From Methanocella sp. (lineage in GTDB: Archaea > Thermoproteota > Bathyarchaeia > Bathyarchaeales > Bathycorpusculaceae), in contig JBLNCY010000010.1 in assembly GCA_050261115.1 (NCBI GenBank), positions 64,001-128,000 on the forward strand: a stretch of 64,000 nucleotides of DNA, given 5' to 3'. The notes under the pieces are model-generated. The model had not been told where the DNA came from, did no database searches, and saw nothing but the letters and a program-made list of their open reading frames with translations. A program made the position numbers and the translations under genes. Of the stretch, positions 1,081 through 57,262 are shown in pieces. Numbering within the stretch: the first letter of the stretch is position 1; every line of letters begins with the position of its first letter.

Positions 1081-1136
1081 CTGTTGTTTTGCCGGGAGAC
1101 CCGTCGTTTATATATAGAGTCAACCATGGGTTCAAA
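1081..1136 (-). repeat. Dispersed intergenic repeat, copy 1
   Basis: Reverse strand TTGAACCCATGGTTGACTCTATATATAAACGACGGGTCTCCCGGCAAAACAACAG; shares AACCCRTGGTTGACTCTATATAT with copy 4. Confidence 0.7.
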
Positions 1137-1411
1137 CCATCCTTGAAATCAGCCATGCTGGCTATATCGCTTGGGTGTGCTTCTATCTTGTATGTCTAAA
1201 TGCAGGTTGTGCTGTTCGTTTTTTGGTGGTGTGGTTTTTGCTGTTTTGGTAACTGGGGGTTTGTTCTGTTCTTAGTCAAGGTTGATTTACTGGTTATAAT
1301 TAAATGCAATATTGCTATTCAATACATGGAACGTGCGGTTTCTTTAGCTAAGATTTTATATACAGACTAGCGCTTACTCCCAAATGCCACATTATCCATG
1401 GGCTGATTCGA

Positions 1412-4087
1412 ATGAATAACAAAAAACCCATTGTATTTACCCTCATCTGCCTGTTAACCTTCACAGGTACCCTAAGTCTGCTCAACCCCACTCAAGCAGA
1501 AACCTGGACAGATATACCACTTCCATACACCATTACCCAGAGCGGCAACTACCGCATCTCTGGCGCCTTCAACGTAACCGGAACAGCATTATCCATAAAC
1601 GCAAGTAACGTAGTCGTCGACGGCCAGAACCACTTAATTTCTCTCAATCAAAGTGAAGGCGACACCGCAATCGCCATAGCGAAAAACAGCAAAAACGTGC
1701 TGCTGAAAAACATTAACGCAACAGGCGCAGACTACGGCGTCTACTCCAGAGAAGGCAACTTTACCCTTACCGATTCACTTTTCACCAATAACACCTCAAC
1801 CGGCGTCTTCGCCTTTAACGCGACAGGTTTCACAGTTCAAAACTCAAGAACAAGCGAGAGCGCCTACGGCATAGTCGCCATCGACTGCAGCAATTTCCTC
1901 ATAAACGACTGTCACATAAAAAATAACCTAAAAGGCATAGTCGCTGTTCTAAGTAGCGGTTTAAGTATTCAAGGAACCCACTTTAACGGCAACGGTGAAG
2001 CTGTATCGGTTCAGAATTGCACAAACGTAAAAATCGACAGCTCTATGCTAGTTGAAAATGAAGCTGCAATAAACGCCACCTATACCACACTTAGCGCTTT
2101 TAACGTAAACGCTTCAAATAACATTGTCTTCGCATTTTACCTCTCAAACAGTACCTTCAACGCAGCTAATTGTACATGTACTAACAATGCAGCAGGCTTG
2201 TATGCTATGTTCAGCAACTACACCATAACTAACTCGTCATTTTCAAATAACCTTTTAGCAGGAGCATACTCTGGCTACAGCAACGGAACACTACTTCATT
2301 GCGCAGTAGAGAACAATACGTACGGCGAATTTTCGGTCATGAATAATGCCACAATTATAGATGACTGCAGTGTTAAAAACAACGAATATGGTCTAGTAAT
2401 TCTCGCCAGCCAAACTATGATAGTTAAAGACTCTTTGTTCTTCAACAACACCCTCGCTGGATTATGGGATCAACAGAGCAGCAGCTCCATACTATCCCGC
2501 AATAACTTTACTCAAAACGGCTTCTCCAACGAAAGCCAGGAATACGGCGGAGGTGCATTATTTCAGGTAGAAAGCAACAGTACAGTCACAGATAATACAT
2601 TCAAGAACAACTATGAGGCCCTACTCATAGGCGGATTCGAAGATGAAACAATAAACACAATAGTTTACAATTACAACAAGTTTGAGAACAACAGCTACAC
2701 CTTCGACTTCAACTATAATCTCCCAAGCAACAGTTCAAACCTCGAGATCCACTTCTACAACAACTACGTCAACGACACAGCCTACATTAGCCCACTAAGC
2801 TTCATAAACGAAGGAATGACTGTACCATCTGCGAACGTTCTTTTCCTCAACACTACACTCCAAGCTGGCAAAAGAGTCACGCTTGACGGCGCACGCATGA
2901 TCGGCGGCAACTACTGGGCACACCCAAACGGCACAGGCTTTAGCCAAACCGCAGCTGACACCAATACCGACGGCTTTGCTGATGATGCCTTTGACCTCTT
3001 TGGCGACGGCACAGTCTATGATTACCTACCCTACACCTCAAGCTACGTCGAAAAAGTAGCAGCTTTAGAAATTACACCCCAGACCCCCATAGTAAAGGCG
3101 GGTGAACCAGTGACCTTTGGTGCCACTGCATATGACGAGTACGGTAACGCATGGAACGCCACCGCCTCATACACCATCGAAGGCAATGAATTCAACGGCA
3201 CCATAACCGCCTACAGCGTAGGCGCATACTATGTGGAAGCAACCTACGGCGGTAAAAGCGCAAACACCACCCTGACCATAGTTCCCAACGAGGTAGACCG
3301 CTATGTCATCTTAACGCCAAATAGCGCCAAAGCCAACATGTCCTTCACCATCAGAATCCTAGCAGTAGACGCCTACAACAACATAGTGACCGACTATTCT
3401 GGTAAGGTAACCTTGAGCCTAAACGCCACCAACATCAGCCCCCGAGAAACTGGCGACTTCACCTACGGCTCTTGGATGGGAACCGTAACCATAACCGACA
3501 CAGGAACCTTCACAATAACCGCCAAAGACAGCAACGGAAAAACAGGCACTAGCAACGCTCTCACCATTGAGCAAGAAACCGCCATACCCACTACTCCACC
3601 GCCCCCTCCCTCAACTGATAGCGTTCAGGCAACCAAAGAAGACGGCACAAAAGTAACCTTATCCCTCGATGGTAACATAACAAGCTCACAGATAACCAAC
3701 ATGACAATCACAACCAACCAAACTGATCGCACAACAATGATATCTTTCACCATTACGGGTCCTGCGGGTGGCAATGGTTTCTGTAATATCACAATCGCTA
3801 AAAGCTCAATAGCCTTTGGCTCAATTCCCATAGTGCTAATTGATGGGCAGACAGTAGCAAACCAAGGCTTCACTGAAGACAATCAAAATTTCTATGTATG
3901 GTTCACTACAAGCTTTAGTACTCATCGAGTAGAAATCCAATTTAACGAGAGGACACAACCGACTAGTCCTCCAACTGAAAATGACTCAAATTGGTGGGTT
4001 ACTCCTGTTGCCCTCATAGTGGGTTTAGCAATTGTTTCGGTTGCGCTGGTGTTCGTCTTTAGCAGAAGAACAAGGCTGCACCGTTAA
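1412..4087 (+). CDS. Secreted, membrane-anchored parallel beta-helix (NosD-like) cell-surface protein with Ig-like domains
   Basis: Signal peptide, Asn-rich beta-helix repeats, GGNYW..PNGTGFSQ..DTNTDGF motif, Pro/Thr linker, C-terminal TM helix plus RRTR. Confidence 0.8.
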   Translation: MNNKKPIVFTLICLLTFTGTLSLLNPTQAETWTDIPLPYTITQSGNYRISGAFNVTGTALSINASNVVVDGQNHLISLNQSEGDTAIAIAKNSKNVLLKNINATGADYGVYSREGNFTLTDSLFTNNTSTGVFAFNATGFTVQNSRTSESAYGIVAIDCSNFLINDCHIKNNLKGIVAVLSSGLSIQGTHFNGNGEAVSVQNCTNVKIDSSMLVENEAAINATYTTLSAFNVNASNNIVFAFYLSNSTFNAANCTCTNNAAGLYAMFSNYTITNSSFSNNLLAGAYSGYSNGTLLHCAVENNTYGEFSVMNNATIIDDCSVKNNEYGLVILASQTMIVKDSLFFNNTLAGLWDQQSSSSILSRNNFTQNGFSNESQEYGGGALFQVESNSTVTDNTFKNNYEALLIGGFEDETINTIVYNYNKFENNSYTFDFNYNLPSNSSNLEIHFYNNYVNDTAYISPLSFINEGMTVPSANVLFLNTTLQAGKRVTLDGARMIGGNYWAHPNGTGFSQTAADTNTDGFADDAFDLFGDGTVYDYLPYTSSYVEKVAALEITPQTPIVKAGEPVTFGATAYDEYGNAWNATASYTIEGNEFNGTITAYSVGAYYVEATYGGKSANTTLTIVPNEVDRYVILTPNSAKANMSFTIRILAVDAYNNIVTDYSGKVTLSLNATNISPRETGDFTYGSWMGTVTITDTGTFTITAKDSNGKTGTSNALTIEQETAIPTTPPPPPSTDSVQATKEDGTKVTLSLDGNITSSQITNMTITTNQTDRTTMISFTITGPAGGNGFCNITIAKSSIAFGSIPIVLIDGQTVANQGFTEDNQNFYVWFTTSFSTHRVEIQFNERTQPTSPPTENDSNWWVTPVALIVGLAIVSVALVFVFSRRTRLHR

Positions 4088-4234
4088 CCCCTTTTTCTTC
4101 TCCTCTTTTTTTAGAAATTTTTATGCTTGATTGGTTGAGGTTTTGGCGCTTAAGTATTTTAGAGGTGCCGCGAACGGTACGGTTTATATCAAACATACAA
4201 CTAAAAATAAACTGGATTTATAGAGGAATTATCT

Positions 4235-4558
4235 ATGAGCACTGAACCATTCCACTTAACCGACTCCAATTTTGAAGAAACCCTAAAAACAAACAAGATC
4301 GTGCTGGTGGATTTCTGGGCAAATTGGTGTGGCCCCTGCCGAGCACTGGCGCCAACTATCGCGGATTTAGCAAAAGAATACAGCGGAAAAGTACTAATCA
4401 GCAAACTCGACGTGGATGAAAACCCCCAGACCGCCGAGAAATTCCAGGTATTCAGTATCCCCACAATGATTCTCTTCAAAGATGGCCAAGAAGTCGAGCG
4501 CCTAGTTGGCTTATGCCCAAGAAACAGAATCACTGACACAATAGCAAAGCACCAGTAA
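4235..4558 (+). CDS. trxA: Thioredoxin
   Basis: DFWANWCGPC motif, 107 aa. Confidence 0.97.
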   Translation: MSTEPFHLTDSNFEETLKTNKIVLVDFWANWCGPCRALAPTIADLAKEYSGKVLISKLDVDENPQTAEKFQVFSIPTMILFKDGQEVERLVGLCPRNRITDTIAKHQ

Positions 4559-4575
4559 GAACGCCCTAAGCGTTT

Positions 4576-5196
4576 CTACTTCATCTTTTCATACATTTTC
4601 TCAAGAGTCCAGCGTACGCTCGACTTAAGTTCCTTTAAGCGTTCCTCATCCACGTTTTTGATAATTATTTCACGGATTAAGTCGCCCTCGCGGACAATGT
4701 TGTAGCTAAACATCTTATCAGGCGAAAGCTGCCCCAACCGAACGAGTTCCTTGTCCTTTTCCTGCATCTTGGCAAAAACTTTCTCAACTAAAAAGTTGCC
4801 AAAGGGCGGAGTATTGACGCTGAACTTCTTGCTCTCATCAGGCATAATATGAATTTGCTGCTTCTCAAAATACATCAACGCGAGGGGTTCTTCAGCCATC
4901 GTTTTGAGTGGTATAACGGTTTCTTGCTCAACAGGCAAGGCCGCGGCAGTGGGCACTTCGGGTTTCGCTGGTTCTGCTGCTGGTTGGGGTAAGATAACCT
5001 CCTTCATAGCGGGAGGCGCCTGAGTTGAGGCGTCTTTTACATCTCCGCGCTTGAAGCCCACCTGCAGTAGTACATTGTTAATGATGTCTAGGGTTGCTTG
5101 GGTTTCTTTAACTTCAGCGTTTAATTTTTCTAGCTGGTCCTCTAGCCGCTTCTTGAAAGCGAGTACTGCCTTCATTTTCTCTGGGTCTTGGGCCAA
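4576..5196 (-). CDS. Hypothetical protein with N-terminal coiled coil
   Basis: 206-aa ORF with protein-like composition filling the gap between trxA and metG. Confidence 0.75.
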   Translation of the reverse strand: MAQDPEKMKAVLAFKKRLEDQLEKLNAEVKETQATLDIINNVLLQVGFKRGDVKDASTQAPPAMKEVILPQPAAEPAKPEVPTAAALPVEQETVIPLKTMAEEPLALMYFEKQQIHIMPDESKKFSVNTPPFGNFLVEKVFAKMQEKDKELVRLGQLSPDKMFSYNIVREGDLIREIIIKNVDEERLKELKSSVRWTLEKMYEKMK

Positions 5197-5347
5197 ACCT
5201 GCTGCACCTTTACGCTATTTACGCAATTACTTGTTTATCAGTTTAACCCTTATCGGCATCTAAGAAATAAAATAGCGTCCCCTTTTGCCAAGCGCGTAAA
5301 AACAATTTAAATAAGGACGCTGCTAAACGATTGTTGGAGACTAAACT

Positions 5348-7042: not shown

Positions 7043-7045
7043 CCG

Positions 7046-8188: not shown

Positions 8189-8276
8189 TGGTGCAGAGGG
8201 TGGGATTCGAACCCACGAACCCCTACGGGATAGGCTCCTGAAGCCTACGCCTTTGACCTGGCTCGGCGACCTCTGC
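8189..8276 (-). tRNA. tRNA-Leu(CAG), intronless, CCA encoded
   Basis: GCAGAGG acceptor stem, anticodon arm TAGGC-TTCAGGA-GCCTA, long variable arm, GTTCGAATC T-loop, ends ACCA. Confidence 0.97.
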
Positions 8277-10911: not shown

Positions 10912-11526
10912 TTGTGGTTTTTTACGGTTGACGCATTAGCAGACCTTTTTCGAGCATCCATTGCGCTTTTCATCATCGTTGACCCCTTCGGTAATATACC
11001 GATCTTCATAGGTTTAACAGAAAAGGTTGAGCCGGCTCAACGACGGAAAGTCTACAACATCGCCATACTCGTGGGGTTTGTGTTGCTTCTCTCTTTTGCA
11101 TTTTTGGGGCAGGAGATCCTGCAGATTTTTGGCTTATCGATTTATGCTTTTCAAATCGCAGGCGGCCTAATGTTACTAATCGTTGCGATTCGGATTTTAG
11201 TGACTGGAAATATGCATGAAAACGCGGAGTCACCTGAAAGTTTGGGCGCTGTTCCGATTGCGATGCCCCTGCTGGTAGGCCCAGGCGCCATCACCACAAC
11301 CATTTTCAACCTCCAAGCGTATGGCACAATAATTTCCATCCTATCCGTGTTGATTGTGCTGTCGATTACTTGGGTTATTTTGCGGTTTATTAATGTGGTT
11401 TATCGGTTTTTGGGTAAGACAGGGTCGCTTGTTATTGCCAGGGTTATGGCGCTGTTGATTGCTGCCATTGCCGTTCAATATATTTTATCGGGCGCCACCT
11501 ACTTTATCGACACAGGGCAAATATAA
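10912..11526 (+). CDS. MarC family membrane protein
   Basis: LFIIVDPFGNIPIF, VPIAMPLLVGPGAIT. Confidence 0.93.
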   Translation: MWFFTVDALADLFRASIALFIIVDPFGNIPIFIGLTEKVEPAQRRKVYNIAILVGFVLLLSFAFLGQEILQIFGLSIYAFQIAGGLMLLIVAIRILVTGNMHENAESPESLGAVPIAMPLLVGPGAITTTIFNLQAYGTIISILSVLIVLSITWVILRFINVVYRFLGKTGSLVIARVMALLIAAIAVQYILSGATYFIDTGQI

Positions 11527-11568: not shown

Positions 11569-11730
11569 ATTTCTATCTGGACGCATTTGCGCAGCCCGAC
11601 ATCTAACCCACCCCTGCAGCCGTACAGCCTCCATCAACAAAGAAACTGCAACCACCCAGACCTGTCCTGTTATTATTTGCAGGGGTTGAGTCTATATATA
11701 AGGGAGGGGGTAGGTCGGCAGAGCAACAGA
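11569..11730 (+). repeat. Dispersed intergenic repeat, copy 2 (long form)
   Basis: Core GGTTGAGTCTATATATAAGGGAGGGGGTAGGTCGGCAGAGCAACAGA at 11684-11730; the upstream ~110 bp is colinear with copy 3. Confidence 0.85.
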
Positions 11731-11748
11731 GACCCATTTTGATTTACG

Positions 11749-12303
11749 CTAGACGGGGAAGTGCATTTCACCCACAGAATAATGCACAATTTCGCCCCGC
11801 CGATTAGTAACAGCCAAAATAAGCTCCTTCTTCTGAGTCTGACACTTCGAAAGCGCATCAGCCAAATCATCAATCGGCAACGGCTTACCTTCCTGCGTAA
11901 CCAAAATCAAGTAAGGCGCAGTGTCTTTGCCGTAAGAGCCACGCTCATAAATACGGAAATCAATACCTGCACCGAAGCCCTCACGAACCACATAGCCCCG
12001 GCTGCGCAGGTCACGGTAGACAAGGTAATTAACCCACGCGTTCTCATTCTTTGCCTCATAGCAATGCAGTAGTTGCTGGAAGTCTACTGTTGCGTTGTCA
12101 GCTGTTTTTGTTTCCAGCATGCCTTTGTCTTGGAGGTAGAGTGCTTCAAAGAAGGCTAAGGTGAAGGTTTTGCCTTCGAGGGTGCCGTATCCGCGGCTGC
12201 TGAGTTGGTCGATGCTGCTCTGCTCTGAGATGATGACGCCTTTGTCGGTTAAGGTGCCGCTTGTTTTGAATTCGACGGGTGCCTTCTTTTGGGTTTCACT
12301 CAT
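11749..12303 (-). CDS. endA: tRNA-intron endonuclease, structural (beta) subunit
   Basis: YLVYRDLRSRGYVV..GIDFRIYERG; lacks the GPG..H catalytic His. Confidence 0.85.
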   Translation of the reverse strand: MSETQKKAPVEFKTSGTLTDKGVIISEQSSIDQLSSRGYGTLEGKTFTLAFFEALYLQDKGMLETKTADNATVDFQQLLHCYEAKNENAWVNYLVYRDLRSRGYVVREGFGAGIDFRIYERGSYGKDTAPYLILVTQEGKPLPIDDLADALSKCQTQKKELILAVTNRRGEIVHYSVGEMHFPV

Positions 12304-15101: not shown

Positions 15102-15656
15102 ATGCCACAGATAAGAGTGGAACTCATCGAAAACTTTCTAGTCGTATGGAACCCCACTGAGGGCTCCCAACTCTACAAAACCGCCTATTATGGCAAACCC
15201 ATCGGGATCCCCAAACCAAAAATTCCCGAATTCGACGTACCGCTCATTTTAGACTTAATGGAAGGCCTCTACTTAGCGGAAACAGGAAAAATCGACATAT
15301 ACGAGGACCCTGACGAAGAAAAGGTCAGCTTAGAAAAACTTCGAGACAAGGCTAAAGAGCTCTATGATGAATTCGAGGAAAAATATGCAGTTTATCAAGA
15401 CATGCGGAACAGCGGCTTAATTGTAACCCCCGGTATAAAGTTTGGCTGTGACTTCGCAGTTTACAAGTATGGCCCCGGCGTGGAACATGCACCCTACATG
15501 GTTACCGTAAAAAGGGCTGGTTCAACGATTTCTGCTACGGAGATTGTAAAAAACGGGCGGCTTGCAACCACTGTGCGAAAACGTTTCATTATTGCTGTTC
15601 CCGATTTAGAGACACAGCAAATAAAATATTTGATGTTTAAGTGGTTTAAGGCTTAG
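15102..15656 (+). CDS. endA: tRNA-intron endonuclease, catalytic (alpha) subunit
   Basis: GIKFGCDFAVYKYGPGVEHAPY..RLATTVRK (Tyr/His/Lys triad); YGKPIGIPKPK loop. Confidence 0.95.
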   Translation: MPQIRVELIENFLVVWNPTEGSQLYKTAYYGKPIGIPKPKIPEFDVPLILDLMEGLYLAETGKIDIYEDPDEEKVSLEKLRDKAKELYDEFEEKYAVYQDMRNSGLIVTPGIKFGCDFAVYKYGPGVEHAPYMVTVKRAGSTISATEIVKNGRLATTVRKRFIIAVPDLETQQIKYLMFKWFKA

Positions 15657-17450: not shown

Positions 17451-17615
17451 CCATTTTCCCTTTCTCCATCGTTTTTCAATAATAAAAAGGCTATGCAAAT
17501 AGGCATGGTTCTGTGTGTGGGTGTTAGTTGACCTGTTTTGGATTGGTAAGCTTGTTGGTTGTTCATGCAAATAATTTATCGGGAATTCTAAGAAGACGTC
17601 GCTTTGTTTTGAGGG

Positions 17616-17763
17616 TCTGCTGCTTTGCTAACCTATCCTCTCCCTATATATAGATTCAACAACCGCCGACAATAACCAAATACACCTGGGCGTTTGCAGG
17701 TTCATGGGGTTGAGGGCTGTATGAATGTGGGATGGGTTGATTGTTGGCTGCACAACCGCATCC
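17616..17763 (-). repeat. Dispersed intergenic repeat, copy 3 (long form)
   Basis: Reverse-strand core GTTGAATCTATATATAGGGAGAGGATAGGTTAGCAAAGCAGCAGA; colinear with copy 2 across ~150 bp. Confidence 0.85.
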
Positions 17764-33391: not shown

Positions 33392-33490
33392 TGGTCTGTC
33401 GCCTGTTTAAACGTGTTTAAACCTTATATACGGAATACTTAAACACTCGAGCTTGTCACAAAATGTAACTCAAAAATAAAGAGGCTACCG

Positions 33491-34228
33491 TTGAAGTTGC
33501 AACTAAAAACCATAGATGTCGTCGTTATCGGTATTAGTGCAGCGTTATATGCTGTATTTGGGATTTTAACTGCGGGCTTTAGTTTTTTGGGCGTAGGATT
33601 TTTACCTGCTGTGGTAATTCCTGCCGTGTTCGCGGCGTTGTATGGGCCCTGGGTGGGCGGTTTTGGTGCGGCAATTGGTATTTTCATCCGGGATATGGTG
33701 GTTCATGGGAACGCGGGGTTGAGTCTCGTTGCGGGTGTTCCGCCTAACTTTATTGTTTTCTTCATTATTGGTTACTTTGCGTTTAGAAGCATTAGCCTCA
33801 AGCAGACCATGGCAGGTATAGTTGTTGCTGCAGTTGGTCTTTTGGTTCCAACTTTGATTTTTCTTCCCGACTTTTTGGCTTATACTGGCTTATCTCTTGA
33901 AGTTTTTATGTCTACTTTCGTGTTAACAGTTATCCTTAGTTTAGCAGTTATTGGTATAGTGTCTGTTAGGTATAAGGAGTGGCGAAGCTACGCTGTTGGA
34001 GCTGTATTTGGGCAAATTTTGGGTGCGGCACTGCTCTCAGTTATCGTAGTAGCGGTCAGCCCACTCTTTCTCACATACTTCACGGAGGCCCTGCCTGCAT
34101 GGGTCATAATTCCCTTGTTTGTCTGGACATTTGCAACTGAGGTGCCATTTGTGTTGCTTTTGGGACCGCCAATTATAAAAGCAGCAAACCGAGCATTTCC
34201 GTCGTTGAGGCGAAATCGACGCCAGTGA
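33491..34228 (+). CDS. ECF transporter S component
   Basis: ISAALYAV, LPAVVIPAVFAALYGPWVGGFGAAIGIFIRD. Confidence 0.85.
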   Translation: MKLQLKTIDVVVIGISAALYAVFGILTAGFSFLGVGFLPAVVIPAVFAALYGPWVGGFGAAIGIFIRDMVVHGNAGLSLVAGVPPNFIVFFIIGYFAFRSISLKQTMAGIVVAAVGLLVPTLIFLPDFLAYTGLSLEVFMSTFVLTVILSLAVIGIVSVRYKEWRSYAVGAVFGQILGAALLSVIVVAVSPLFLTYFTEALPAWVIIPLFVWTFATEVPFVLLLGPPIIKAANRAFPSLRRNRRQ

Positions 34229-35166: not shown

Positions 35167-35642
35167 GGCAATTTCGAAAAGTCGCTGTCGGCGGAACCTT
35201 CGATCAACTTCATAAAGGTCACAAAGCTTTATTGAGTAAGGCTTTCGAAGTAGGCGATAGGGTTGCTATCGGTGTGACTTCGGATAGTTTTGTCTCAAAG
35301 CTGGATAAAAAGCATCGAACCGCATCTTTTGAAGACCGTAAACGGGAACTCAGAGCTTACCTTACTGAACAAGGCTTGATGGATAGAGCCGAGATTGTGC
35401 CACTAGATAACTCCTTTGGCTTAACCATTACCAGCCCGGATCTGGACGCCATTGTGGTAAGCCAAGAAACCGAACGCATTGCTAAGATCATTAACTGTAA
35501 ACGTGAAAACTCAGGTAAACCGCCTTTGCAGGTGATTGTGGTGACTATGGTTCCAGCAGAGAACCATTGCCCTATTTCTACAACACGAATCCGCCGCGGC
35601 GAAATTGACCGCAACGGACATTTGCTGCAGCGAACTGCTTAG
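35163..35642 (+). CDS. coaD: Phosphopantetheine adenylyltransferase (archaeal type)
   Basis: VGGTFDQLHKGH, IVVSQET, ISTTRIR. Confidence 0.92.
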   Translation: MRQFRKVAVGGTFDQLHKGHKALLSKAFEVGDRVAIGVTSDSFVSKLDKKHRTASFEDRKRELRAYLTEQGLMDRAEIVPLDNSFGLTITSPDLDAIVVSQETERIAKIINCKRENSGKPPLQVIVVTMVPAENHCPISTTRIRRGEIDRNGHLLQRTA

Positions 35643-36577
35643 AGTATTTCTCCTATAACGTTTATTGGTTTGGGGATAAGGGCTTTTAAGTCGTCGAGGC
35701 GTTCTGGGTCGATTGTGGCTAATACAACCGTTGCTGGCCCCGCAGACTTGTTTAGGTCTAATCCTTTTGGCTCGATGAGTTTTAGTTGTCTGCCAACGCC
35801 GTAAGCCATCATTTTTGCTTCACTGGCGATTCCAAAGCTGCCTACCGCAGCAATGTCATGCACGTACTTTCGCTGGTTAAGTTGTGCGACGTTTTTGAGG
35901 TCTGCGATTTCTCCATGTGCCTCCGCCGCGATGACCTCCATGCCTACTTTTGGTCTACCGATAGCCACGACCAAATCGTTTGGCATAGTTTTACCCAATC
36001 GGAGTTCATCCTCGTTGGCTAGACCCACTACCGTTAAACCTGCGCCTGTCTGCACTGTGGGAAAGTTGTCTTCGGTGTTTTCCATAAGCACTTGATTAGG
36101 GTCTAAACCGATGGTTCTTGCCTCCCGTTTAATACCTTCGCTGATTTCTTTCCCTGTGGGGTCGTTCTCTACGCCCAGTGTTAGCGATAGTAGCAGGGGG
36201 AAGGCGCCGGTTGCTATCACATCCATCAGGGCGACTCTTGCGAGAAATTTTCCTAAGAATTTTCCGTCCACCTTCACTTTGTCAAATTCTTTGGGTCCTA
36301 CTGCGCCGCTGGAGGTGGAACCTGTGACTATGGCGTGTCCTGTGGGCATTTTTAGGATTGATACGTCGCCGTGTCGGGTGTAGCTGATTTGGGCGGGTTT
36401 TACTTGGAAAGCGATGGGGCGTAGCATGGTGCCGACGTTTTCTATTAGGTGCAGGTATATGGTTAGGGCTTGGCGCATGACTTCTGAGCGGGTTAGGCTG
36501 TGCTTTTTTGCAAGTCTGTCTACGTCTTCTAGGACTTTGTCGGGTAAACGGACGTTTATAATATCCAAGAGATTCAC
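35639..36577 (-). CDS. RHH domain fused to an AIR-synthase-fold alpha-ribazole kinase (CblS)-like domain
   Basis: IINVRLPDKVLEDVDRLA..TRSEVMRQAL; GAVGPK..D.V, ARVALMD, GVENDPTG, TEDNFPTVQTGAG. Confidence 0.8.
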   Translation of the reverse strand: MNLLDIINVRLPDKVLEDVDRLAKKHSLTRSEVMRQALTIYLHLIENVGTMLRPIAFQVKPAQISYTRHGDVSILKMPTGHAIVTGSTSSGAVGPKEFDKVKVDGKFLGKFLARVALMDVIATGAFPLLLSLTLGVENDPTGKEISEGIKREARTIGLDPNQVLMENTEDNFPTVQTGAGLTVVGLANEDELRLGKTMPNDLVVAIGRPKVGMEVIAAEAHGEIADLKNVAQLNQRKYVHDIAAVGSFGIASEAKMMAYGVGRQLKLIEPKGLDLNKSAGPATVVLATIDPERLDDLKALIPKPINVIGEIL

Positions 36578-36648: not shown

Positions 36649-36703
36649 GGGTTCAACCCGTGGTTGACTCTATATATGGAGGGGGTAGGTCGGCAAAGCA
36701 ACA
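36649..36703 (+). repeat. Dispersed intergenic repeat, copy 4
   Basis: GGGTTCAACCCGTGGTTGACTCTATATATGGAGGGGGTAGGTCGGCAAAGCAACA. Confidence 0.85.
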
Positions 36704-36807
36704 AGCAACCGCATAATCTCTAGATACGCAGCATAAAAAACAAACATACAGCCAAACGGGAAATCAAAACAAAGAACAGAAAAAACAAAGGGGAAAGAGG
36801 GGGGGTC

Positions 36808-45674: not shown

Positions 45675-45686
45675 AAGGTATATAAG
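45675..45686 (+). promoter_or_regulatory. TATA box of 5S rRNA promoter
   Basis: AAGGTATATAAG about 25 nt before the 5S 5' end. Confidence 0.7.
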
Positions 45687-45705
45687 ACAAAACCCTACAG
45701 TAAGG

Positions 45706-45833
45706 GTAGGTTTGCCGGTCAAAGGGCACGGGTTCCACCTGATCCCATCCCGAACTCAGAAGTTAAACCGTGTTCCGTTCCCAGCTGTAGTGTGGTCTTA
45801 GGCCACGTGAACCTGGGAAAGCTGGCAGCCTAC
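45706..45833 (+). rRNA. rrf: 5S rRNA (stand-alone)
   Basis: Helix I GTAGG..TGCCGG / CTGGCA..CCTAC; CACCTGATCCCATCCCGAACTCAGAAGTTAA loop C motif; pyrimidine tract downstream. Confidence 0.93.
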
Positions 45834-45915
45834 TTTTCCCAGTCACTTCATCCCCCGATTTAGCATACCTTTATAGCTTACCTCTAATAGTTTTTGGAGA
45901 AGTGGTGTACACAAT

Positions 45916-47468: not shown

Positions 47469-47499
47469 ACGGCTAGGCACCCATAATTATTTTTTGTTT

Positions 47500-50759: not shown

Positions 50760-51847
50760 TCATGCTAGCCGACTTCGACTACTTCTTTGCCCAATGCGAG
50801 GAACTCCGCAACCCCGGCATAAAAGACAAACCCGTCGTCGTCGGCGTCTACTCCGGCCGTACCGAGGAAAGCGGTGCTGTCTCCACAAGCAACTATGTAG
50901 CAAGAAAGTATGGTGTCAAATCGGGTTTGCCGCTGTTTTTGGCCAAGCGGAAGCTTGAGGGCACTGACGCCGTCTTCTTCCCAGTCGACCATCAATACTA
51001 CAGCCAAATAAGCGACCGCATCATGACGATATTCCGCACCTACGCCACTGCGCTTGAACAGGTCAGCATAGACGAAGCCTACCTTGACGTAACTGAGCAG
51101 GTTGAAGGCAGCTTCGAGATAGCCCAAAGCTACGCCCAAAAAATCAAGGCAGACGTGAAAGCCCAAGTTGGAATCTCGATTACCATTGGCGTTGGACCCA
51201 ATAAGCTGATTGCGAAGATCGCCTGCGACAGCCAAAAACCCGACGGCTTAACCATCGTGCGACCTGAAGATGCCCAGGCGTTTCTTGCTCCGATGCCGGT
51301 AGATCGGTTGCTGGGGGTGGGTAAGAAGACGACCGCACGGATGGAGCAGATGGGCATCAAAACCATAGCGGACCTCTCCAAATACGACTGTCAACGCTTA
51401 ATCGAGGTCTTCGGCAAGGCCTTGGGAATCTATTTCCATAACGCCGCCAACGCAATCGACAACGAACAAGTGCGAGAGCAAGGCGAGGCGGAATCCATAA
51501 GCAAAATCGCCACCCTCAAACAGGACACCCACGACTTGGGATTCATTACCCAAAAAACCAACGAACTAATAGACATAGTCTACAAGGAAGTCATCGAAAA
51601 AGGCTACAGCTTCAAAACTATCTCAATCTACACAGTTAACGTGGACCTAAGCAGCAAAACCCGCAGCATAACCCTAGACCAACCCGCTAAAGACAAAGAA
51701 ACAATCTGCCGTAACGTGCGTATGTTGTTTGAGAAGTATCTTTCAGAGTCGCCGCTGGATATTCGGCGGGTTGGCGTTAAGGTTTCGGGGTTCAGTAAAG
51801 AGCCGCCTAAGCAGAAGAGTCTGATGAGCTTTTTTGGGTCAACTTAG
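50744..51847 (+). CDS. dinB: DNA polymerase IV (Y family)
   Basis: DFDYFFAQ, NYVARKYGV, SIDEAYLD, KPDG, GVGKKT. Confidence 0.96.
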   Translation: MQTRVIMLADFDYFFAQCEELRNPGIKDKPVVVGVYSGRTEESGAVSTSNYVARKYGVKSGLPLFLAKRKLEGTDAVFFPVDHQYYSQISDRIMTIFRTYATALEQVSIDEAYLDVTEQVEGSFEIAQSYAQKIKADVKAQVGISITIGVGPNKLIAKIACDSQKPDGLTIVRPEDAQAFLAPMPVDRLLGVGKKTTARMEQMGIKTIADLSKYDCQRLIEVFGKALGIYFHNAANAIDNEQVREQGEAESISKIATLKQDTHDLGFITQKTNELIDIVYKEVIEKGYSFKTISIYTVNVDLSSKTRSITLDQPAKDKETICRNVRMLFEKYLSESPLDIRRVGVKVSGFSKEPPKQKSLMSFFGST

Positions 51848-51864
51848 CTCTGGTAAATAGGCGT

Positions 51865-51987
51865 ATTTTCTATCCCGGTGCAGTTGCACAGCCCCAGTGC
51901 CAAGAACCAACAAACACCAGACATACACTGCTACCGTCCAGTTGCTGAGTCTATATAAGGGCAGAGGGTCTCTGTGAGAGCCACAGA
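51865..51987 (+). repeat. Dispersed intergenic repeat, copy 5
   Basis: Core GCTGAGTCTATATAAGGGCAGAGGGTCTCTGTGAGAGCCACAGA at 51944-51987; upstream TTTCTATCCCGGTGCAGTTGCACAGCCC matches copy 2 TTTCTATCTGGACGCATTTGCGCAGCCC. Confidence 0.75.
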
Positions 51988-52079
51988 AGCAAAATACCTA
52001 CCCTACTGGTAAGATGCAACATTAGATGTCTACAAGAATAATTATCTCGCCAAACACCTATACATAATGGAGAAAAACC

Positions 52080-52670: not shown

Positions 52671-52812
52671 TGATGGGCGTTTCGATTAAATCACAAAGAC
52701 ATGCTCGCAAGGTGTTTTTGAAAGTCAGAAAATGTAATGTTATTGCATATTGGTGAGTAGATAAGGTTTATTAGTTGTCTATGATACTGATGTGAATTCC
52801 AAGGGGTGTAAT

Positions 52813-52929
52813 ATGGTGACCAAGCAGAACTCAAAGGCAAAGAAAGCCGCAGCCAAAGAAAACAGCAAAACGGTGGCCAAGAAACGCAAAGAGGACGCCC
52901 AAAAAGCTCTCTACATAACACGAATCTAA
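52813..52929 (+). CDS. 38-aa Lys/Ala-rich basic peptide
   Basis: AGGGGTG SD then MVTKQNSKAKKAAAKENSKTVAKKRKEDAQKALYITRI. Confidence 0.55.
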   Translation: MVTKQNSKAKKAAAKENSKTVAKKRKEDAQKALYITRI

Positions 52930-53116
52930 ACACAACAAACCACTTTATACATTCAAGTCGGCATTGTTAGGCAATTAGCAAGCACACAACCAATTCTCCT
53001 ATACTTTAACACGGCATTTCTCTTCTTTTAGCGTAGGAACCCCCAAAACCCCGCCTTTCAAGCACAAGGATAATATAGCAAACCTTGATGTTGATAGGCT
53101 GGAAGCGTGCCTCAAA

Positions 53117-54271
53117 GTGAAAAGCAAAGTAAGCAGCCTAGGATACGTCAACCGCATACAAGAAAACATCCTTTCCATAAAAAAGAAAGAGTTAGCCCCC
53201 CTCTATGAGGAGCTCCGAGCCGCAGACTGCGTCATATGCGGAGGCAGCGGACGATCACTTTACTCATTAAACGCCGCCATGAGCCAAATCGCTCTGGCTA
53301 CAGCAGGCTGGCGCAACAAAGTCGTTTTAACACCCGACGACCCAGGCTTCCCTGGAAAAAGCATGTATGAAGCCGCGGCCGATTTAGAGCGCCGGTACAA
53401 AAAAACCGTGCTGCTTATGAACAGCGGTAGCGGTTACAGCGACGATCCCCTTGTCATGGCACAGGATCTAGCGAAGTATATCGAAGACAAAAAATCCACC
53501 CGATTCAGCATGGGTCTATTAACCTCCGCTCCAGACTCTCCTTTAGCGGAAATCACCCAAAAATATGGTCAAGTTGTTCAACTCAAGGGCCGAGGCAAAC
53601 TCAAACCCAGCTTTGAATACTCCGAAACAGGCATGATGGGCGACATATTCGAACTCGGCACACTTGAATTACTAAACAGCATGATAGAAGCTATCTTCCG
53701 CAATCTCGACGTAGACGAAGTCTACCCGCTATGTGTGGAAGAATTCGAAAAGATGGGTGAAATGATCGACAACAACGTAAACAGCGAAACATACGTTAAA
53801 GTCGTTGACTTACTGGAAAAGCGCACCAACATTTTCCTCGGCGGCAAGGGTACCGCAAGCGAAATCGCCAAAATGACCGCCATTCGGCTCTTTCACATCA
53901 AAAGCTTCCTAGGCGACAACGTCTACATCACAAGAGGCGTCAACACACCCCACCCACGCGCAGGCGACCTCGAAATACTTCTCAGCTGCTCAGGAGAAAC
54001 CCGCCCAGTCATCCTCTGGGCAGACGTGCTCAAAAAATTCAACGGCACCGTATTTGCCATCACCAGCAACGAAGACTCTGCCTTAGCCAAAAAAGCCGAC
54101 CTCAAAATCATCCTACCCGAAGAAGCCAAACCAAGTTTCCCAAGACGCTTCTACACCAGAGCCGCATATGTGCTTAGCCCCTTACCAGTAAAGCTGGCAG
54201 AACGCCTAGGCGAGCGAGGATTAAACCTACCCGAATATATCATCAGCTGGTACCACAGCGTCACCCAATAG
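53117..54271 (+). CDS. Tandem SIS-domain protein (3-hexulose-6-phosphate isomerase-like)
   Basis: GGSGRS..NSGSG..MGDIFE and GGKGTA..SCSGET..ITSNEDSALAKKAD. Confidence 0.75.
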   Translation: MKSKVSSLGYVNRIQENILSIKKKELAPLYEELRAADCVICGGSGRSLYSLNAAMSQIALATAGWRNKVVLTPDDPGFPGKSMYEAAADLERRYKKTVLLMNSGSGYSDDPLVMAQDLAKYIEDKKSTRFSMGLLTSAPDSPLAEITQKYGQVVQLKGRGKLKPSFEYSETGMMGDIFELGTLELLNSMIEAIFRNLDVDEVYPLCVEEFEKMGEMIDNNVNSETYVKVVDLLEKRTNIFLGGKGTASEIAKMTAIRLFHIKSFLGDNVYITRGVNTPHPRAGDLEILLSCSGETRPVILWADVLKKFNGTVFAITSNEDSALAKKADLKIILPEEAKPSFPRRFYTRAAYVLSPLPVKLAERLGERGLNLPEYIISWYHSVTQ

Positions 54272-54324
54272 GTGAAAGGGAAAAGTCCTAAATAGCCAGC
54301 GCCTAACCTCATAAGCGATGCGGC

Positions 54325-55116
54325 ATGGATCTACTGCAATCCCTAACTTTAGGCTTCATCCAGGGAACCACCGAGTGGCTACCGATTAGCAGCACTGGGC
54401 ACCTCCGAATCGCAGAGCACTTTTTTGGTTTGTCTGTGCCGCTCCTTTTTGATGTTCTGCTACATTTCGGTACCCTGCTTGTAACGTTGATTTTCTTTCG
54501 CAGAGAAGTCATAAACCTCCTAAGAGCGCTCTGGCACCACGATTTTGGTTCCCCCGAGGGTAAACTCGTCTTGCCAATCATCGCTGGTTCAATCCCAACT
54601 GCGCTGATAGCTTTCCTGGCTGGACATAGCCTTGACGCTTACTTTAACACGTTGCCCTTGTTGGCGGCGGGGTTTGTTGCCAGCGGAGTTCTCTTGGTTG
54701 CCTCAAAATGGTCCAAAGACACCAAAGACCACATCAGCCTCCCAGTCGCCTTAGTCATCGGTGTCATGCAGGGACTCTCAATAATACCGTCAATTTCGCG
54801 GAGCGGCATAACTATAGCCGTCATGCTCATCTTAGGCATCAAACGGGAACTGGCGTTCAAGTACTCATTCCTGCTCTCCATACCCGCAGTAGTCGGCGCA
54901 TTAGGTCTCCAACTCTACCAAGAACACGGTGCATTAGCGGTTTCAGGCATCGGCTCCACAGAAATCCTTGCTTCCATGGTGGTTACTGTTGCTGTGAGCT
55001 TCTTTGCCCTAAAAATCCTGCAGAAATCTATAGCTGCAAACAAGTTCTGGCTGTTTAGCATCTACTGCTTTGCAATGGCCACGGCGCTGTTTGTGTTAGC
55101 TTTGTTGGGTTTTTAG
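54325..55116 (+). CDS. uppP: Undecaprenyl-diphosphate phosphatase
   Basis: QGTTEWLPISSTGH, PSISRSG, SFLLSIP. Confidence 0.93.
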   Translation: MDLLQSLTLGFIQGTTEWLPISSTGHLRIAEHFFGLSVPLLFDVLLHFGTLLVTLIFFRREVINLLRALWHHDFGSPEGKLVLPIIAGSIPTALIAFLAGHSLDAYFNTLPLLAAGFVASGVLLVASKWSKDTKDHISLPVALVIGVMQGLSIIPSISRSGITIAVMLILGIKRELAFKYSFLLSIPAVVGALGLQLYQEHGALAVSGIGSTEILASMVVTVAVSFFALKILQKSIAANKFWLFSIYCFAMATALFVLALLGF

Positions 55117-56517
55117 CCAAAACGGCTTCCCATCTATGAACGCGGTGAGGGCAACTGCAAAGTCTGCCTGCTCCACATATACCTTCAAGATGTCGGCGTT
55201 AGTTAGGATTTTAGAGTCTGCTAAGACTGCTTTGGCTATGAGGTCTGCTACGCCAGTATCCTTTCCGCCATTCTCGAGCTTTTCTCGGAATAGCTCGGCA
55301 GCGTCTGTGTATTTGCGGGGTAACTCAACAATCCAACGGCCGTCTTCAACGTAGGGGCCGGCTAATACGTTGTTTTGTGTGTATTTGGCAAGGAACTGGT
55401 CGCACTCGGTTTGGCGTTCGAGTGGTGGCCCAAGATGCTTTTTTACGTTGGGTAACTTTGCTTGTTCGAGTTCAAAGGTGAACACGCTAAGGGACTGTTC
55501 ATTGCTCCAGACGGCGTCACGTAGAACCTTAAAATCATATGTTTCTAGCAGGGTGCGCAGGGAGCGTTTGGTGCGGTATAATTGCCCCCAGAACACATCG
55601 GGAACAGCGACTACTTCGCCGACTACCAGAAACAGGAACGATGAGCAACAATGTTCCAATCGGTCCGCAAGCAAGTCCGGCGAGACGGCATGGGCGAGTG
55701 GGGGGTAGAAGAATTCCTGGGTTGGTGTTTTGAGGAATGCGCGTGAGGCCGCGATGAATTCGTAGAGTTTTTGTGTTTGAACCGCGGAGGCTACGTTTCG
55801 GCCTTTATCGACTGGATCAACAATAACTAGCGGCTCAGAAAAGAGAAGCTCAAGTTCTCGTGGGCGTTGGTTATAGAAGTTCTCGGGGTCGATTACTACT
55901 CGTTTGTTGTAGACGGCAAATGCTTCAATTACCTTTTGGAAGGAGCCATAGTGCATGGTGAGTAATTCGCAGAGGTACCCGCTAAATCCGCCGATCTTTA
56001 TTTCTGCGCCATACACACCGATGCCCTGCATGAATTTTTTAAGCAACCTAACTTCGTCACGTAACTCATCTGGAAGGTGGCTTTGGATGTAGTCGGTGTG
56101 ATAGGGTGTGCGATCTGTGGCGCTTTGCCATTCGCCAGGGGCGGTGTCATAGCAGGGTACGATGTCTACACGGAAGCCCTCAACAAAACTTTCCAGATAT
56201 GGGTGCTCAGCAAATCGTTCGGTCTGCTCTGCGTCTCCCGCCGCTTTTTTAGCGATTCTTAATCCGATGGTGCCAAGCTCTTTGCGGGGGATCGAGGTGG
56301 GTAGGCGCATGAATACATCGATGTCTGGGTTTTCGTCTAGGTAAGTGTCTTTTGCAACGGAGCCTTCGACTCGGACGATGGCGTTTATGCCCTCGGCTTG
56401 GACTGCCTCTGCGATTTGCCGCTCTATTCTTTGGCTTATGACGCGGATTTTTTCTCGTGTTTCTGGTTTAGGCTTGATTTTCTGTAGAATCTGTTGGGTT
56501 AATGCGTCAAGAGCCAT
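55096..56517 (-). CDS. cca: CCA-adding enzyme (archaeal class I)
   Basis: GSVAKDTYL..DIDVF, AEHPY, DRTPYH, GFSGYLCEL, DPVDKGRNVA. Confidence 0.96.
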   Translation of the reverse strand: MALDALTQQILQKIKPKPETREKIRVISQRIERQIAEAVQAEGINAIVRVEGSVAKDTYLDENPDIDVFMRLPTSIPRKELGTIGLRIAKKAAGDAEQTERFAEHPYLESFVEGFRVDIVPCYDTAPGEWQSATDRTPYHTDYIQSHLPDELRDEVRLLKKFMQGIGVYGAEIKIGGFSGYLCELLTMHYGSFQKVIEAFAVYNKRVVIDPENFYNQRPRELELLFSEPLVIVDPVDKGRNVASAVQTQKLYEFIAASRAFLKTPTQEFFYPPLAHAVSPDLLADRLEHCCSSFLFLVVGEVVAVPDVFWGQLYRTKRSLRTLLETYDFKVLRDAVWSNEQSLSVFTFELEQAKLPNVKKHLGPPLERQTECDQFLAKYTQNNVLAGPYVEDGRWIVELPRKYTDAAELFREKLENGGKDTGVADLIAKAVLADSKILTNADILKVYVEQADFAVALTAFIDGKPFWLKTQQS

Positions 56518-56529
56518 CTTTTTGGCCAG

Positions 56530-57105
56530 CTATGGACAGTACTCTTTGAGGGTTGTGTATGCTGGGCCTTTAGGTGAGAGCTGGCTTCTTTTTAGTTTTA
56601 GGCAGTCGCCGCGGATGTTGCCGAAGTCATAGTTTTCATGGCGCTGCACTAGGTCGACGAGGCGTTGTTTGTTTGCGCCGCTTCGAACTCGGGCAATGGT
56701 TAGGTGGGGTGTGAATCCTTCGGGTTCTGGTTTGAATCCGAGGTCGTGGAGTTGGGGCTCGAGTTGTTCCCAGATGCTTTGAAGTTGGGCTGCGCCGTCG
56801 GTTATGCCTGCCCAAACGACTCGGGGATAGTTTATGGTGGGGAACACTCCGAGTCCTGTTACCTGTATATTGAAGGGTGTAAATTTTACGTTTTTCATGG
56901 CTTCATAGACTTTCTCTACCATCTCAGGGGTGATTTCGCCAAGAAAACGTACAGTAATATGGATGTTTTTTGGTTCGACGAGTTTAACGTCGGCGTTTGT
57001 TTGCATAATCATTTTCTGTGCCGTTGCAATTCGGTTAACGACACTGTCGTTTGATAAGTCGAAAGCTATGAAGCTTCTTATTTTTTCGGACATACTCATC
57101 TTCAA
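56530..57105 (-). CDS. thpR: RNA 2',3'-cyclic phosphodiesterase (2H family)
   Basis: HITVRFLG and FTPHLTIAR. Confidence 0.95.
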   Translation of the reverse strand: MKMSMSEKIRSFIAFDLSNDSVVNRIATAQKMIMQTNADVKLVEPKNIHITVRFLGEITPEMVEKVYEAMKNVKFTPFNIQVTGLGVFPTINYPRVVWAGITDGAAQLQSIWEQLEPQLHDLGFKPEPEGFTPHLTIARVRSGANKQRLVDLVQRHENYDFGNIRGDCLKLKRSQLSPKGPAYTTLKEYCP

Positions 57106-57217
57106 CTGTTTTTAGAACTGAATCGATACATAAATTCTTTTATTAACAGCGATAGAGCGATAATTGATGCTCTGTTGCTTTTCCGTTTTGAACGGTGTAT
57201 ATGGCGGCTGGTTAATG

Positions 57218-57262
57218 GCTGTTGCTCTCACAGAGACTCCCCCTCTTATATATAGACAAAAC
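57218..57262 (-). repeat. Dispersed intergenic repeat, copy 6
   Basis: Reverse strand GTTTTGTCTATATATAAGAGGGGGAGTCTCTGTGAGAGCAACAGC; shares GTCTCTGTGAGAGC with copy 5. Confidence 0.8.

Follow-up and report, generated by a model that had tools for sequence, protein, structure and literature searches.

What is the short DNA element that recurs in six unrelated intergenic gaps of a 64-kb stretch of a Bathyarchaeia genome (contig JBLNCY010000010.1, positions 64,001 to 128,000; hereafter the window)? An earlier note on this DNA had drawn attention to the repeat, and its observation of six copies (c1 to c6, in window order) is confirmed, each copy lying at the position and on the strand at which it had been placed. 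Counting both strands, the window holds exactly six occurrences of the octamer TCTATATA, each inside one of the copies (starting at 1118-, 11691+, 17654-, 36669+, 51950+, and 57256-), and an nhmmer profile built from the six copies matched only those six in the window (E 3.7e-29 to 2.2e-15), with the next-best match at E 5.1. Further, the joint pattern of the left and right halves, TTGANTCTATATAN{16,25}RARCMRCA, was matched four times in the window (G+C 0.48) compared with no match in 100 dinucleotide shuffles. The copies constitute a real, diverged, and dispersed intergenic family, as had been proposed. All six lie between open reading frames (ORFs), and their neighboring genes have unrelated housekeeping or accessory functions. 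Some details of the first description needed correction. The left motif GTTGANTCTATATAT, taken to be common to all copies, is exact in four of the six (c1 to c4) and reads GCTGAGTCTATATAAG in c5 and GTTTTGTCTATATATA in c6; the right half GTAGGTYRGCARAGCARCA, ascribed to c2, c3, and c4, is found in c2 and c4, but c3 opens with A, not G. The alternative right half GTCTCTGTGAGAGCMACAG fits c5 and c6, and c1 is indeed intermediate. The extent of the repeat had been understated, as conservation reaches further upstream, into a GGTTNAACC box and, in c2 and c3, an additional module (U1). Judged from its sequence, the repeat may be a stand-alone cassette of the archaeal core-promoter type that carries extra factor-binding boxes and has spread by duplication, and this is the explanation that we favor, tentatively and at somewhat less than an even chance.

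The anatomy of the repeat was determined from an alignment of the six window copies with 11 copies from other genomes (17 copies). The conserved unit is ~55 bp long and comprises, in order, GGTTNAACC, 4-5 nt, GTTGAAYC, the octamer TATATATA (the TATA octamer), a G-run, and TAGGTCGGCAGAGCAACAG. The AT-only TATA octamer is invariant, falls within the palindrome CTATATATAG, and is present (within TCTATATATA) in all six window copies, which were not chosen by the pattern used for the genome scan described below. The GGTTNAACC box is clear in 10 of 17 copies, sits 13-21 nt upstream in c1 and c4, and is a perfect 11-bp palindrome in c4 and L071 (L numbers denote loci from the scan). We also note that TTGAAYC forms a direct repeat with a 13-bp period in 10/17 copies. 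The G-run (GGGGAGGGG) is 9-12 nt long and lies, together with TAGGTCGGCAG, in a stretch that the scan pattern left free; the TGA before the TATA octamer of the L loci, in turn, was imposed by that pattern. RARCMRCA contains three CA steps, and its end lies 35-39 nt from the start of the TATA octamer in 16 of the 17 copies, even though the scan pattern allowed 32-41 nt. Downstream similarity among the window copies ends at about +42; the best downstream pair gave z 2.3, and for every pair at least 11 of 300 shuffles scored as well. In ~11/17 copies, judged by eye, CAACAG is followed by a C/T-rich patch, with TTTT in four.

Scanning genomes by sequence pattern returned at least 104 loci, diverged copies being missed by the strict form of the pattern. 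Among the 104 matches listed, 11 pass the window profile (E 1.2e-15 to 1.6e-6), all of them from archaeal metagenome-assembled genomes (MAGs): six in CAWALK01, two in CAWDBI01, and one each in PLYI01, JAOZHM01, and CAYPGY01. Three of these five MAGs are titled Bathyarchaeota or Bathyarchaeia (PLYI01 and JAOZHM01, Candidatus Bathyarchaeota; CAYPGY01, Candidatus Bathyarchaeia). The 93 rejected loci among the 104 listed are mostly bacterial, with five archaeal ones (L015, L020, L056, L062, and L094); these chance matches served as an internal control, and none carries the G-run together with TAGGTCGGCAG. None of the listed loci overlaps the window (blastn, 1e-10). The strict pattern, which occurs four times in the 64-kb window, was matched at least three times in 453 kb of a relative's contig and at least once in each of the relatives' contigs of 327, 372, 215, and 140 kb. 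By the matches listed, the relatives thus hold it at a much lower density than the window, which qualifies the large genome-wide family suggested in the earlier note.

Conservation at an orthologous site was seen in the only orthologous pair compared. In both L078 and L006, the element is present 42-49 nt past the stop codon of orthologous Asn-synthase-like genes (67.2% amino acid identity over 512 amino acids). The core is nearly identical in the two, and the sequence past CAGCAG and the next gene differ, the latter coding for a class II aminoacyl-tRNA synthetase in one genome and being a UDP-glucose dehydrogenase-like gene in the other. Over the columns not fixed by the pattern, copies from one genome have an identity of 0.53 (n = 31) and copies from different genomes one of 0.51 (n = 105), and c1, c2, and c4 are each nearest to L027, a copy from another genome. 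Because the copies fail to cluster by genome, selection toward a consensus appears a better account of their likeness than recent bursts. One pair of loci, L002 (CAWALK010000015.1) and L086 (CAWALK010000017.1), appears as a segmental duplicate inside the assembly of one MAG. The two have in common an NTPase gene (94% amino acid identity), two modules of the repeat, and a zinc-finger ORF, which reflects either segmental duplication or assembly or strain redundancy; the L086 copy lacks 6 nt between its G-run and CAACA. The zinc-finger ORF (59 amino acids; 2242-2418 (-) in L002) bears a single C2H2 signature that falls below the Pfam cutoff (E 0.002) and ends with a stop codon directly against the second module; a hairpin CTCAGCGTTTGCTGAG with a T-run comes next on the strand of the ORF.

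Several copies are accompanied by further related sequence. Upstream of the core, c2 and c3 have a further ~120 nt in common (z 8.5; 0/300 shuffles as good), for a total common stretch of ~160 nt, part of which is also present in c5. The upstream regions of c5 and c6 match that of c3 weakly (z 3.0 and 3.6), and the other 11 pairs are not significant. U1 was not found in the window or the related loci outside c2, c3, and c5, and we rejected it as a separate repeat because it is present only in those three. Second modules on the same strand, partly read by eye, follow at +57 nt in L027 and at +56 nt in L031 and L017; nhmmer scored those of L027 and L031 at only E 0.08 to 1.8. The second modules of L002 and L086, at +190 nt, were better matched (E 1.3e-4 and 6.3e-5). 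The AT tract of second modules is CTATAAATAG, TTTAAATAAG, or TGTAAATAG, all of which are TATA-box forms (TATAAATA, TTTAAATA, or GTAAATA). In L027, an A/C-rich, ORF-poor stretch of 425 nt (1620-2000 (-)) parts the repeat from an amino-acid kinase gene and holds the second module, and a third, very degenerate module, GTGTATAGGGCATTTTCGGCAACAACACA, can be made out by eye at about 1795-1825. The motif CTGCAACCCAC recurs in L027, in L002, and in U1 of c2 and c3.

Gene context, based on longest-ORF heuristics and Pfam, was available for 14 copies. Eight of them (c1, c2, c4, L002, L078, L006, L017, and L071) are followed on the 3' side by a convergent gene; a possible ninth case, L027, hangs on a doubtful 109-amino acid ORF without Pfam support. 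The gene that follows is co-oriented in five (c3, c5, c6, L031, and L021), or six if the L027 ORF is spurious. The distance from TATA to the co-oriented start codon is 89, 130, 151, 120, and 261 nt in the five (425 nt for L027 if its ORF is spurious), and the genes reached are functionally unlike (DUF454, molybdopterin oxidoreductase, LigT, CobD, radical SAM, and amino-acid kinase). By eye, other genes of the window have TATA-like boxes ~30-50 nt from the start codon. With eight of 14 contexts convergent and the co-oriented TATA octamers 89-261 nt from a start, the copies do not simply serve as the promoters of whichever gene comes next, as the earlier note had also judged. In L078, the element takes up the entire 96-nt gap between two gene ends, and a convergent stop codon lies 2-8 nt from the element in L078, the second module of L002, and the second module of L017. 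At least one gene end faces the element in 12/14 contexts, for which random intergenic placement expects 75%, and the gaps that hold copies measure 222-353 nt. The A/C-richness of the flanks was given no weight as a signal because T-rich 3' regions of convergent genes and A/C-rich leaders elsewhere account for it. A linked DNA-binding gene was likewise rejected, the DNA-binding neighbors being inconsistent among copies: ribbon-helix-helix (RHH)-type by c1 and c4, weak winged helix-turn-helix by L031, and none by the others.

How far does the repeat resemble a promoter? In the portion of PMC6640164 drawn on here, the P. furiosus promoter consists of a transcription factor B (TFB) recognition element (BRE) at -36(RRAAA)-32, a TATA box at -30(WTTTAAAW)-23, a pyrimidine/purine initiator (Inr), and an AT-rich stretch from -11 to -2. 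The same portion states that direction is set by TFB, not by the TATA-binding protein (TBP), and that symmetric TATA boxes yield orphan antisense transcripts. The repeat has the 8-bp, A/T-only TATA box of an archaeal promoter, and the second-module form TTTAAATA agrees with the WTTTAAAW consensus of that source. CA (pyrimidine/purine) steps lie 27-35 nt past the first T of the TATA box, as befits an initiator, although this match is weakly discriminating because CA dinucleotides are common; in the window's 5S rRNA gene, the 5' end of the RNA is 27 nt from its own TATA. At the BRE position, the forward strand reads TGAAT in 10/17 copies, TGA[CGT]T in six, and TTTGT in c6. We favor an autonomous promoter because the octamer is invariant and drifts to TATA forms in the second modules, TGAAT stands at the BRE position, and CA steps occur where the similarity among copies ends.

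From these features we infer TBP and TFB binding, a start site, a direction, transcripts and, possibly, a regulatory factor. TBP would bind the invariant TATATATA within its palindrome, and the upstream GTTGAAYC, which places TGAAT at the BRE position, would orient TFB. Transcription would start ~27-30 nt downstream, inside RARCMRCA, which puts the predicted starts in the RARCMRCA octamers of c1 to c6 at 1082-1089 (-), 11721-11728 (+), 17618-17625 (-), 36696-36703 (+), 51978-51985 (+), and 57220-57227 (-). The GGTTNAACC palindrome, the G-run, and TAGGTCGGCAG or TAGGTCGG may be contacted by TFB or by a factor, specific to this family, that governs activity. In position, the G-run may resemble the eukaryotic TFIIB downstream recognition element. 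The cassette would act independently of adjoining genes: facing a convergent gene, it would launch an antisense transcript into that gene's 3' end; facing a co-oriented gene, it would provide a long A/C-rich leader; and its transcripts may also be non-coding. Copies would arise when short intergenic segments are duplicated, after which selection would keep them near one consensus. Such a duplication history and the promoter reading are compatible, and the repeat may be a "mobile promoter" in the sense given to that term in part of PMC3575422.

A number of observations weigh against the promoter reading. The BRE is partial, TGAAT agreeing with RRAAA at 3/5 positions at best, and its TGA was pattern-imposed in the 11 L loci; in the opposite orientation, the corresponding sequence is of the CTCCC type, and there is no BRE. 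The -11 to -2 region, which should be AT-rich for melting, has a G+C content of 0.59 in the forward and 0.46 in the reverse orientation, compared with 0.48 for the window. In 4/17 copies, a TTTT run lies no more than ~15 nt past the predicted start, and, if these runs terminate transcription, absurdly short RNAs would therefore result. Comparison of the sequences downstream of the copies revealed no conserved RNA or ORF after the element. More than half of the contexts (8/14) have no co-oriented gene downstream, and, by eye, the co-oriented genes seem to own TATA-like boxes 30-50 nt from their starts. The copies in the L loci were ascertained via a pattern, and the counts are those of the matches listed. 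Further, 45 conserved bp are far beyond the need of a core promoter, and another DNA-binding protein could explain them equally well.

Such a protein is at the center of one rival explanation, which we regard as possible yet doubtful and which takes up the chromosome-organization site proposed in the earlier note: the repeat would be a composite target, bound by a protein with sequence specificity (regulatory, chromatin- or boundary-related, or of the Orc1/Cdc6 kind), that does not initiate transcription and instead marks or insulates the ends of transcription units, the AT tract giving a bendable link from the GGTTNAACC/GTTGAAYC boxes to the G-run/TAGGTCGG box. The conserved length of ~45-55 bp, the GGTTNAACC palindrome, the 13-bp TTGAAYC periodicity (10/17), and the absence of a conserved transcript product suit such a site, as does the fact that each promoter orientation fails one canonical feature. 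At the Asn-synthase-like gene, the element has also stayed by the 3' end, with a different gene downstream in each genome. The gene ends that face it in 12/14 contexts point the same way but are not clearly above the 75% random expectation. Against such a site, the DNA-binding neighbors differ among copies, and TBP gives a better account of why second modules drift to other bona fide TATA forms. Likeness to origin recognition boxes (ORBs) was considered separately and rejected: no Cdc6/Orc1 domain was found in the 60 ORFs of the window, the copies lie 5-19 kb apart, and the S. solfataricus mini-ORB sequence, as given in the portion of PMC3089459 drawn on, bears no likeness to the repeat. Rather more improbable, in our view, is that the copies are a non-autonomous mobile element (MITE/REP-like, that is, resembling miniature inverted-repeat transposable elements or repetitive extragenic palindromes, or a mobile promoter) or relics of one, moved by an unlinked transposase or by recombination and with incidental promoter content. 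Six copies per 64 kb, lying on both strands and in gaps unrelated to one another, would be expected of such an element; the 222-353-nt gaps become ordinary with ~100-160 nt removed, segments have been duplicated (c2 and c3 match over ~160 nt, c5 in part), and the strict pattern is denser in the window (4 per 64 kb) than in relatives (at least 3 per 453 kb, at least 1 per 327 kb, and at least 1 per 372 kb). Promoter-bearing mobile repeats are also known, for example Correia, ERIC, REPIN, and the putative mobile promoters treated in part of PMC3575422. The hallmarks of mobility, however, were not found. A search of six 220-230-nt regions gave no inverted pairs, and a gapped test of left against right ends gave z <2 in 13/14 copies, the exception being a 13-nt match 166-179 nt away; the two agree with the earlier note that terminal inverted repeats are lacking. 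A hand alignment of the left end of c2 and c3 with the reverse-complemented right end was no better than shuffles (z 1.2 and 1.5) and was discarded, and inspection by eye of the borders of the c2/c3 homology showed no flanking direct repeat (target duplication). By Pfam, the 60 ORFs of the window include no transposase, integrase, or reverse transcriptase, the earlier note having likewise seen no transposase. The imperfect palindrome or stable stem-loop of REP type was equally absent (no consensus pairs, fold z ~0, duplex z -0.29), which leaves the proposed REP/MITE identity without its defining palindromes or inverted ends. A viral or plasmid origin was rejected, blastn having found no match in the phage and plasmid collections. 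Further, two species whose flanking protein is only 67% identical have the element at one and the same site, its core is far better kept than the flanks, and the copies are not clustered by genome.

The copies could instead be ordinary, unusually similar promoters of co-oriented genes, that is, a regulon with a shared operator and long leaders in which the orphan copies are decayed or mis-annotated, which we hold to be quite improbable. A co-oriented gene is present in five of the 14 contexts (six if the L027 ORF is spurious), the A/C-rich sequence between the element and these genes resembles other leaders in the window, and long leaders exist in some archaea, M. jannaschii being mentioned in the portion of PMC6640164 used here. 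These points have to be set against the convergent gene in 8/14 contexts and the L078 gap made up entirely of the element, against TATA-to-start distances of 89-425 nt compared with 30-50 nt at other window genes (by eye), and against downstream genes without a common function; a hidden, small, conserved ORF downstream was not found. Least probable of all, and largely refuted, is an element that works at the RNA level, be it a structured small RNA, a 3'-UTR or terminator hairpin, or a Shine-Dalgarno or anti-Shine-Dalgarno mimic. It would find a basis in the Shine-Dalgarno-like GGGGAGGGG and its anti-Shine-Dalgarno-like complement, in the C/T-rich patch after CAACAG (~11/17 by eye, TTTT in four), and in the convergent stop codons 2-8 nt from the element in L078 and the second modules of L002 and L017. 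RNAalifold, however, predicted no consensus pairs for the 17 copies, and single-sequence folds of the long forms on the two strands were no better than shuffles (z 0.09, -0.07, 0.70, and 0.26). Pairing of the G-run with the C/T patch after CAACAG as a hairpin or terminator was rejected, the mean duplex z over the 17 copies being -0.29. RNAalifold on c2 and c3 alone proposed a long-range reverse-strand helix with three compensatory pairs, which we rejected because only two sequences were involved and the fold z was near 0. No copy had an Rfam match at E up to 5 (window) or 1 (loci). There was no hidden small ORF or conserved peptide downstream, tblastx matching only the L002/L086 duplicate, and coding by the element is excluded because indels fall in the G-run. 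The earlier suggestion of a multicopy non-coding RNA could therefore not be sustained, there being neither conserved sequence, ORF, or fold downstream nor an Rfam match.

A C/D-box or other known RNA downstream of the copies was also considered and rejected: there was no Rfam match, and the tRNA genes near L071 and L100 are on the other strand. The former (2127-2201 (+)) lies 92 nt away and is divergent, with a candidate TATA-like box of its own, AAATACATAAAA, ~35 nt upstream (by eye); the latter (58-132 (+)) is ~166 nt away and convergent.

Among known systems, the repeat family is classed with promoter-like dispersed intergenic repeats, its nearest relations being the intergenic repeats of halovirus HF2, mobile promoters, and the bidirectional or orphan antisense transcription that TATA boxes drive. 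It is like an archaeal core promoter in its AT-only octamer, its TGAAT, a partial match, at the BRE position, its pyrimidine-purine steps at the right distance, and its tight TATA-Inr spacing; it is intergenic, and its symmetric TATA could fire both ways. It is unlike one in that ~45-55 bp are conserved rather than ~15, the melting region is G+C-rich (0.59), most copies are without a downstream gene or RNA gene, and the co-oriented genes are 89-425 nt off. The HF2 repeats, according to the portion of PMC8707807 drawn on, comprise a class I of 58 bp and a class II of 29 bp, promoter activity has been measured, and counter-transcripts are reported. Like the present repeat, they are intergenic units of similar size with an AT-rich motif whose sequence and position are kept among related genomes, but that portion of the source describes them as viral, haloarchaeal, and located ahead of gene blocks, and blastn of c2 against the phage collection found nothing that would relate the two. 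Putative mobile promoters, as defined in the part of PMC3575422 used here, likewise are homologous non-coding DNA beside non-homologous genes, duplicate independently of genes, and spread by an obscure mechanism. In that account, they are defined upstream of genes and are mostly bacterial, and Correia, ERIC, and REPIN have inverted repeats or palindromes; in contrast, half of the present copies face gene ends, and no inverted repeat was found. With REP/BIME (bacterial interspersed mosaic element) sequences and MITEs, the family has in common that it is extragenic, at about one copy per 10 kb, on both strands, and often between convergent genes, but REPs are imperfect palindromes, and MITEs have terminal inverted repeats and target duplications. 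ORBs have a G-string and resemble the repeat as a short symmetric element followed by that string. They differ in clustering round an AT-rich unwinding element by orc1/cdc6, whereas here six sites are spread over 57 kb and no such gene was found in the window. The halophile ORB "G-string" is mentioned in the portion of PMC4010727 drawn on.

A full-text literature search found, among the papers it covered, neither such a family nor promoter repeats of Bathyarchaeia, consistent with the earlier note, and a search on Bathyarchaeia promoters or TATA boxes returned nothing related. Bathyarchaeia are abundant and mostly uncultured and, to our knowledge, their transcription signals are unstudied. The cassette would thus offer a handle on how transcription is started or bounded in these archaea and a candidate strong promoter for genetic tools, and it may exemplify promoters that spread as units, or antisense transcription programmed at gene ends. 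A more far-reaching version, which we think unlikely, is that a Bathyarchaeia lineage keeps "orphan" super-promoters, 55-bp cassettes at the ends of transcription units that would send regulatory antisense RNA into convergent genes or form TBP-nucleated boundaries, and that these would be served jointly by the basal machinery and a specialized factor, for example a TFB/TBP paralogue or a GGTTNAACC-binding regulator. If true, archaea would have a genome-wide layer of antisense or boundary control that is defined by sequence and has not been described. The repeat as a protein-binding boundary site would, for its part, be a rare sequence-defined signal of chromosome organization in archaea. Interest rises if orphan copies prove active or bind a dedicated factor.

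The six window copies and their neighbors are as follows. In the core of c1 (1079-1136 (-); 17-copy profile E 1e-12 at 1136-1079), a GGTTTGAACC box and GTTGACTC precede the TATA octamer (1111-1118), and a weak purine run and GTCTCCCGGCAAAACAACAG follow it. This copy lies between a weak RHH-like ORF (621-1058 (+)), whose end is toward the element, and a beta-helix/NosD gene (1412-4087 (+)). The long form of c2 (11579-11735 (+)) comprises U1 at 11579-11685 and a core at 11678-11730, with the TATA octamer at 11691-11698, between the convergent genes for MarC (10912-11526 (+)) and a tRNA-splicing endonuclease (11749-12303 (-)). The long form of c3 (17610-17763 (-)) likewise has U1 at 17660-17763 and a core at 17615-17665, with the TATA octamer at 17647-17654; it is divergent from the RNase HII gene (17869 (+)), and the end of its core is 47 nt upstream of the start of a DUF454 ORF (17570 (-)). 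The c4 core (36651-36704 (+)) is made up of the 11-bp palindrome GGGTTCAACCC, GTTGACTC, the TATA octamer (36669-36676), the G-run, and GTAGGTCGGCAAAGCAACAA. With the start of an RHH-AIRS gene (36577 (-)) on one side and the end of a GH5 cellulase gene (36808 (-)) on the other, c4 aims into a gene's 3' end. In c5 (51837-51988 (+)), a diverged U1 (51837-51944) precedes the core (51936-51988), in which the TATA octamer (51950-51957) is followed by the variant right half GTCTCTGTGAGAGCCACAG; this copy follows a DinB-type polymerase gene (end 51847 (+)), and the end of the core is 94 nt before a molybdopterin oxidoreductase gene (52080 (+)). The c6 core (57217-57265 (-)) has a degenerate upstream box GCAAACCCGTTTTG, the TATA octamer at 57249-57256, the G-run, and GTCTCTGTGAGAGCAACAG; it follows a 126-amino acid ORF (end 57330 (-)), and its end is 114 nt before LigT/CCA-adding enzyme genes (57105 (-)). 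A possible degenerate second module of c6, read by eye at 57172-57203 (-) as CATATACA, 15 nt, and AAGCAACAG, lies ~53 nt downstream and is noted because related loci hold clearer ones at +56/57 and +190 nt; nhmmer gave it E 31-44 at 57170-57184, which is not significant.

Several neighboring features were recorded alongside. The RHH-AIRS gene (35639-36577 (-)), which is divergent from c4, has an N-terminal CopG-type RHH domain fused to an AIR-synthase-related domain, and the c4 palindrome GGGTTCAACCC precedes its start by ~85 nt; next to c1, the other window copy with a palindrome box, is the weak RHH-like ORF at 621-1058. The tRNA-splicing endonuclease gene by c2 has a paralogue 3 kb away (15102-15656 (+)), both with N-terminal and catalytic Pfam domains, which we take to suggest a heteromeric (two-subunit) enzyme. 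A stand-alone 5S rRNA gene (45679-45840 (+); Rfam 45711-45830) has its TATA at 45679 and no 16S or 23S rRNA gene near; by eye, GTAGG at 45706 and CCTAC at about 45831-45835 form its helix I, and TTTT follows. The start of the 5S rRNA, GGGTAGGT, resembles the right half of the repeat, and descent of the repeat from the 5S rRNA promoter and 5' end was considered, with GGGTAGGT and CAACCCGT in common; it was rejected, the best z among 14 copies being 2.3 and not significant. The sole tRNA gene of the window, tRNA-Leu(CAG) at 8189-8276 (-), has a TATA-like GAATATATTTATC ~45 nt upstream, unlike the repeat. An unusually long gap of 673 nt (57711-58383) contains an 83-amino acid ORF (57784-58035 (-)) that matches only the C-terminal half of DUF6512 (95-173 of 181) and may be a truncated gene or have a mis-set start. 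At 33395-33430 (+), a tandem direct repeat, TGTTTAAAC / GTGTTTAAAC, stands directly before the TTATATAC box of a gene at 33491 with a weak match to the S-component of energy-coupling factor transporters (below the Pfam cutoff), and this repeat looks like a candidate regulator site that overlaps the BRE.

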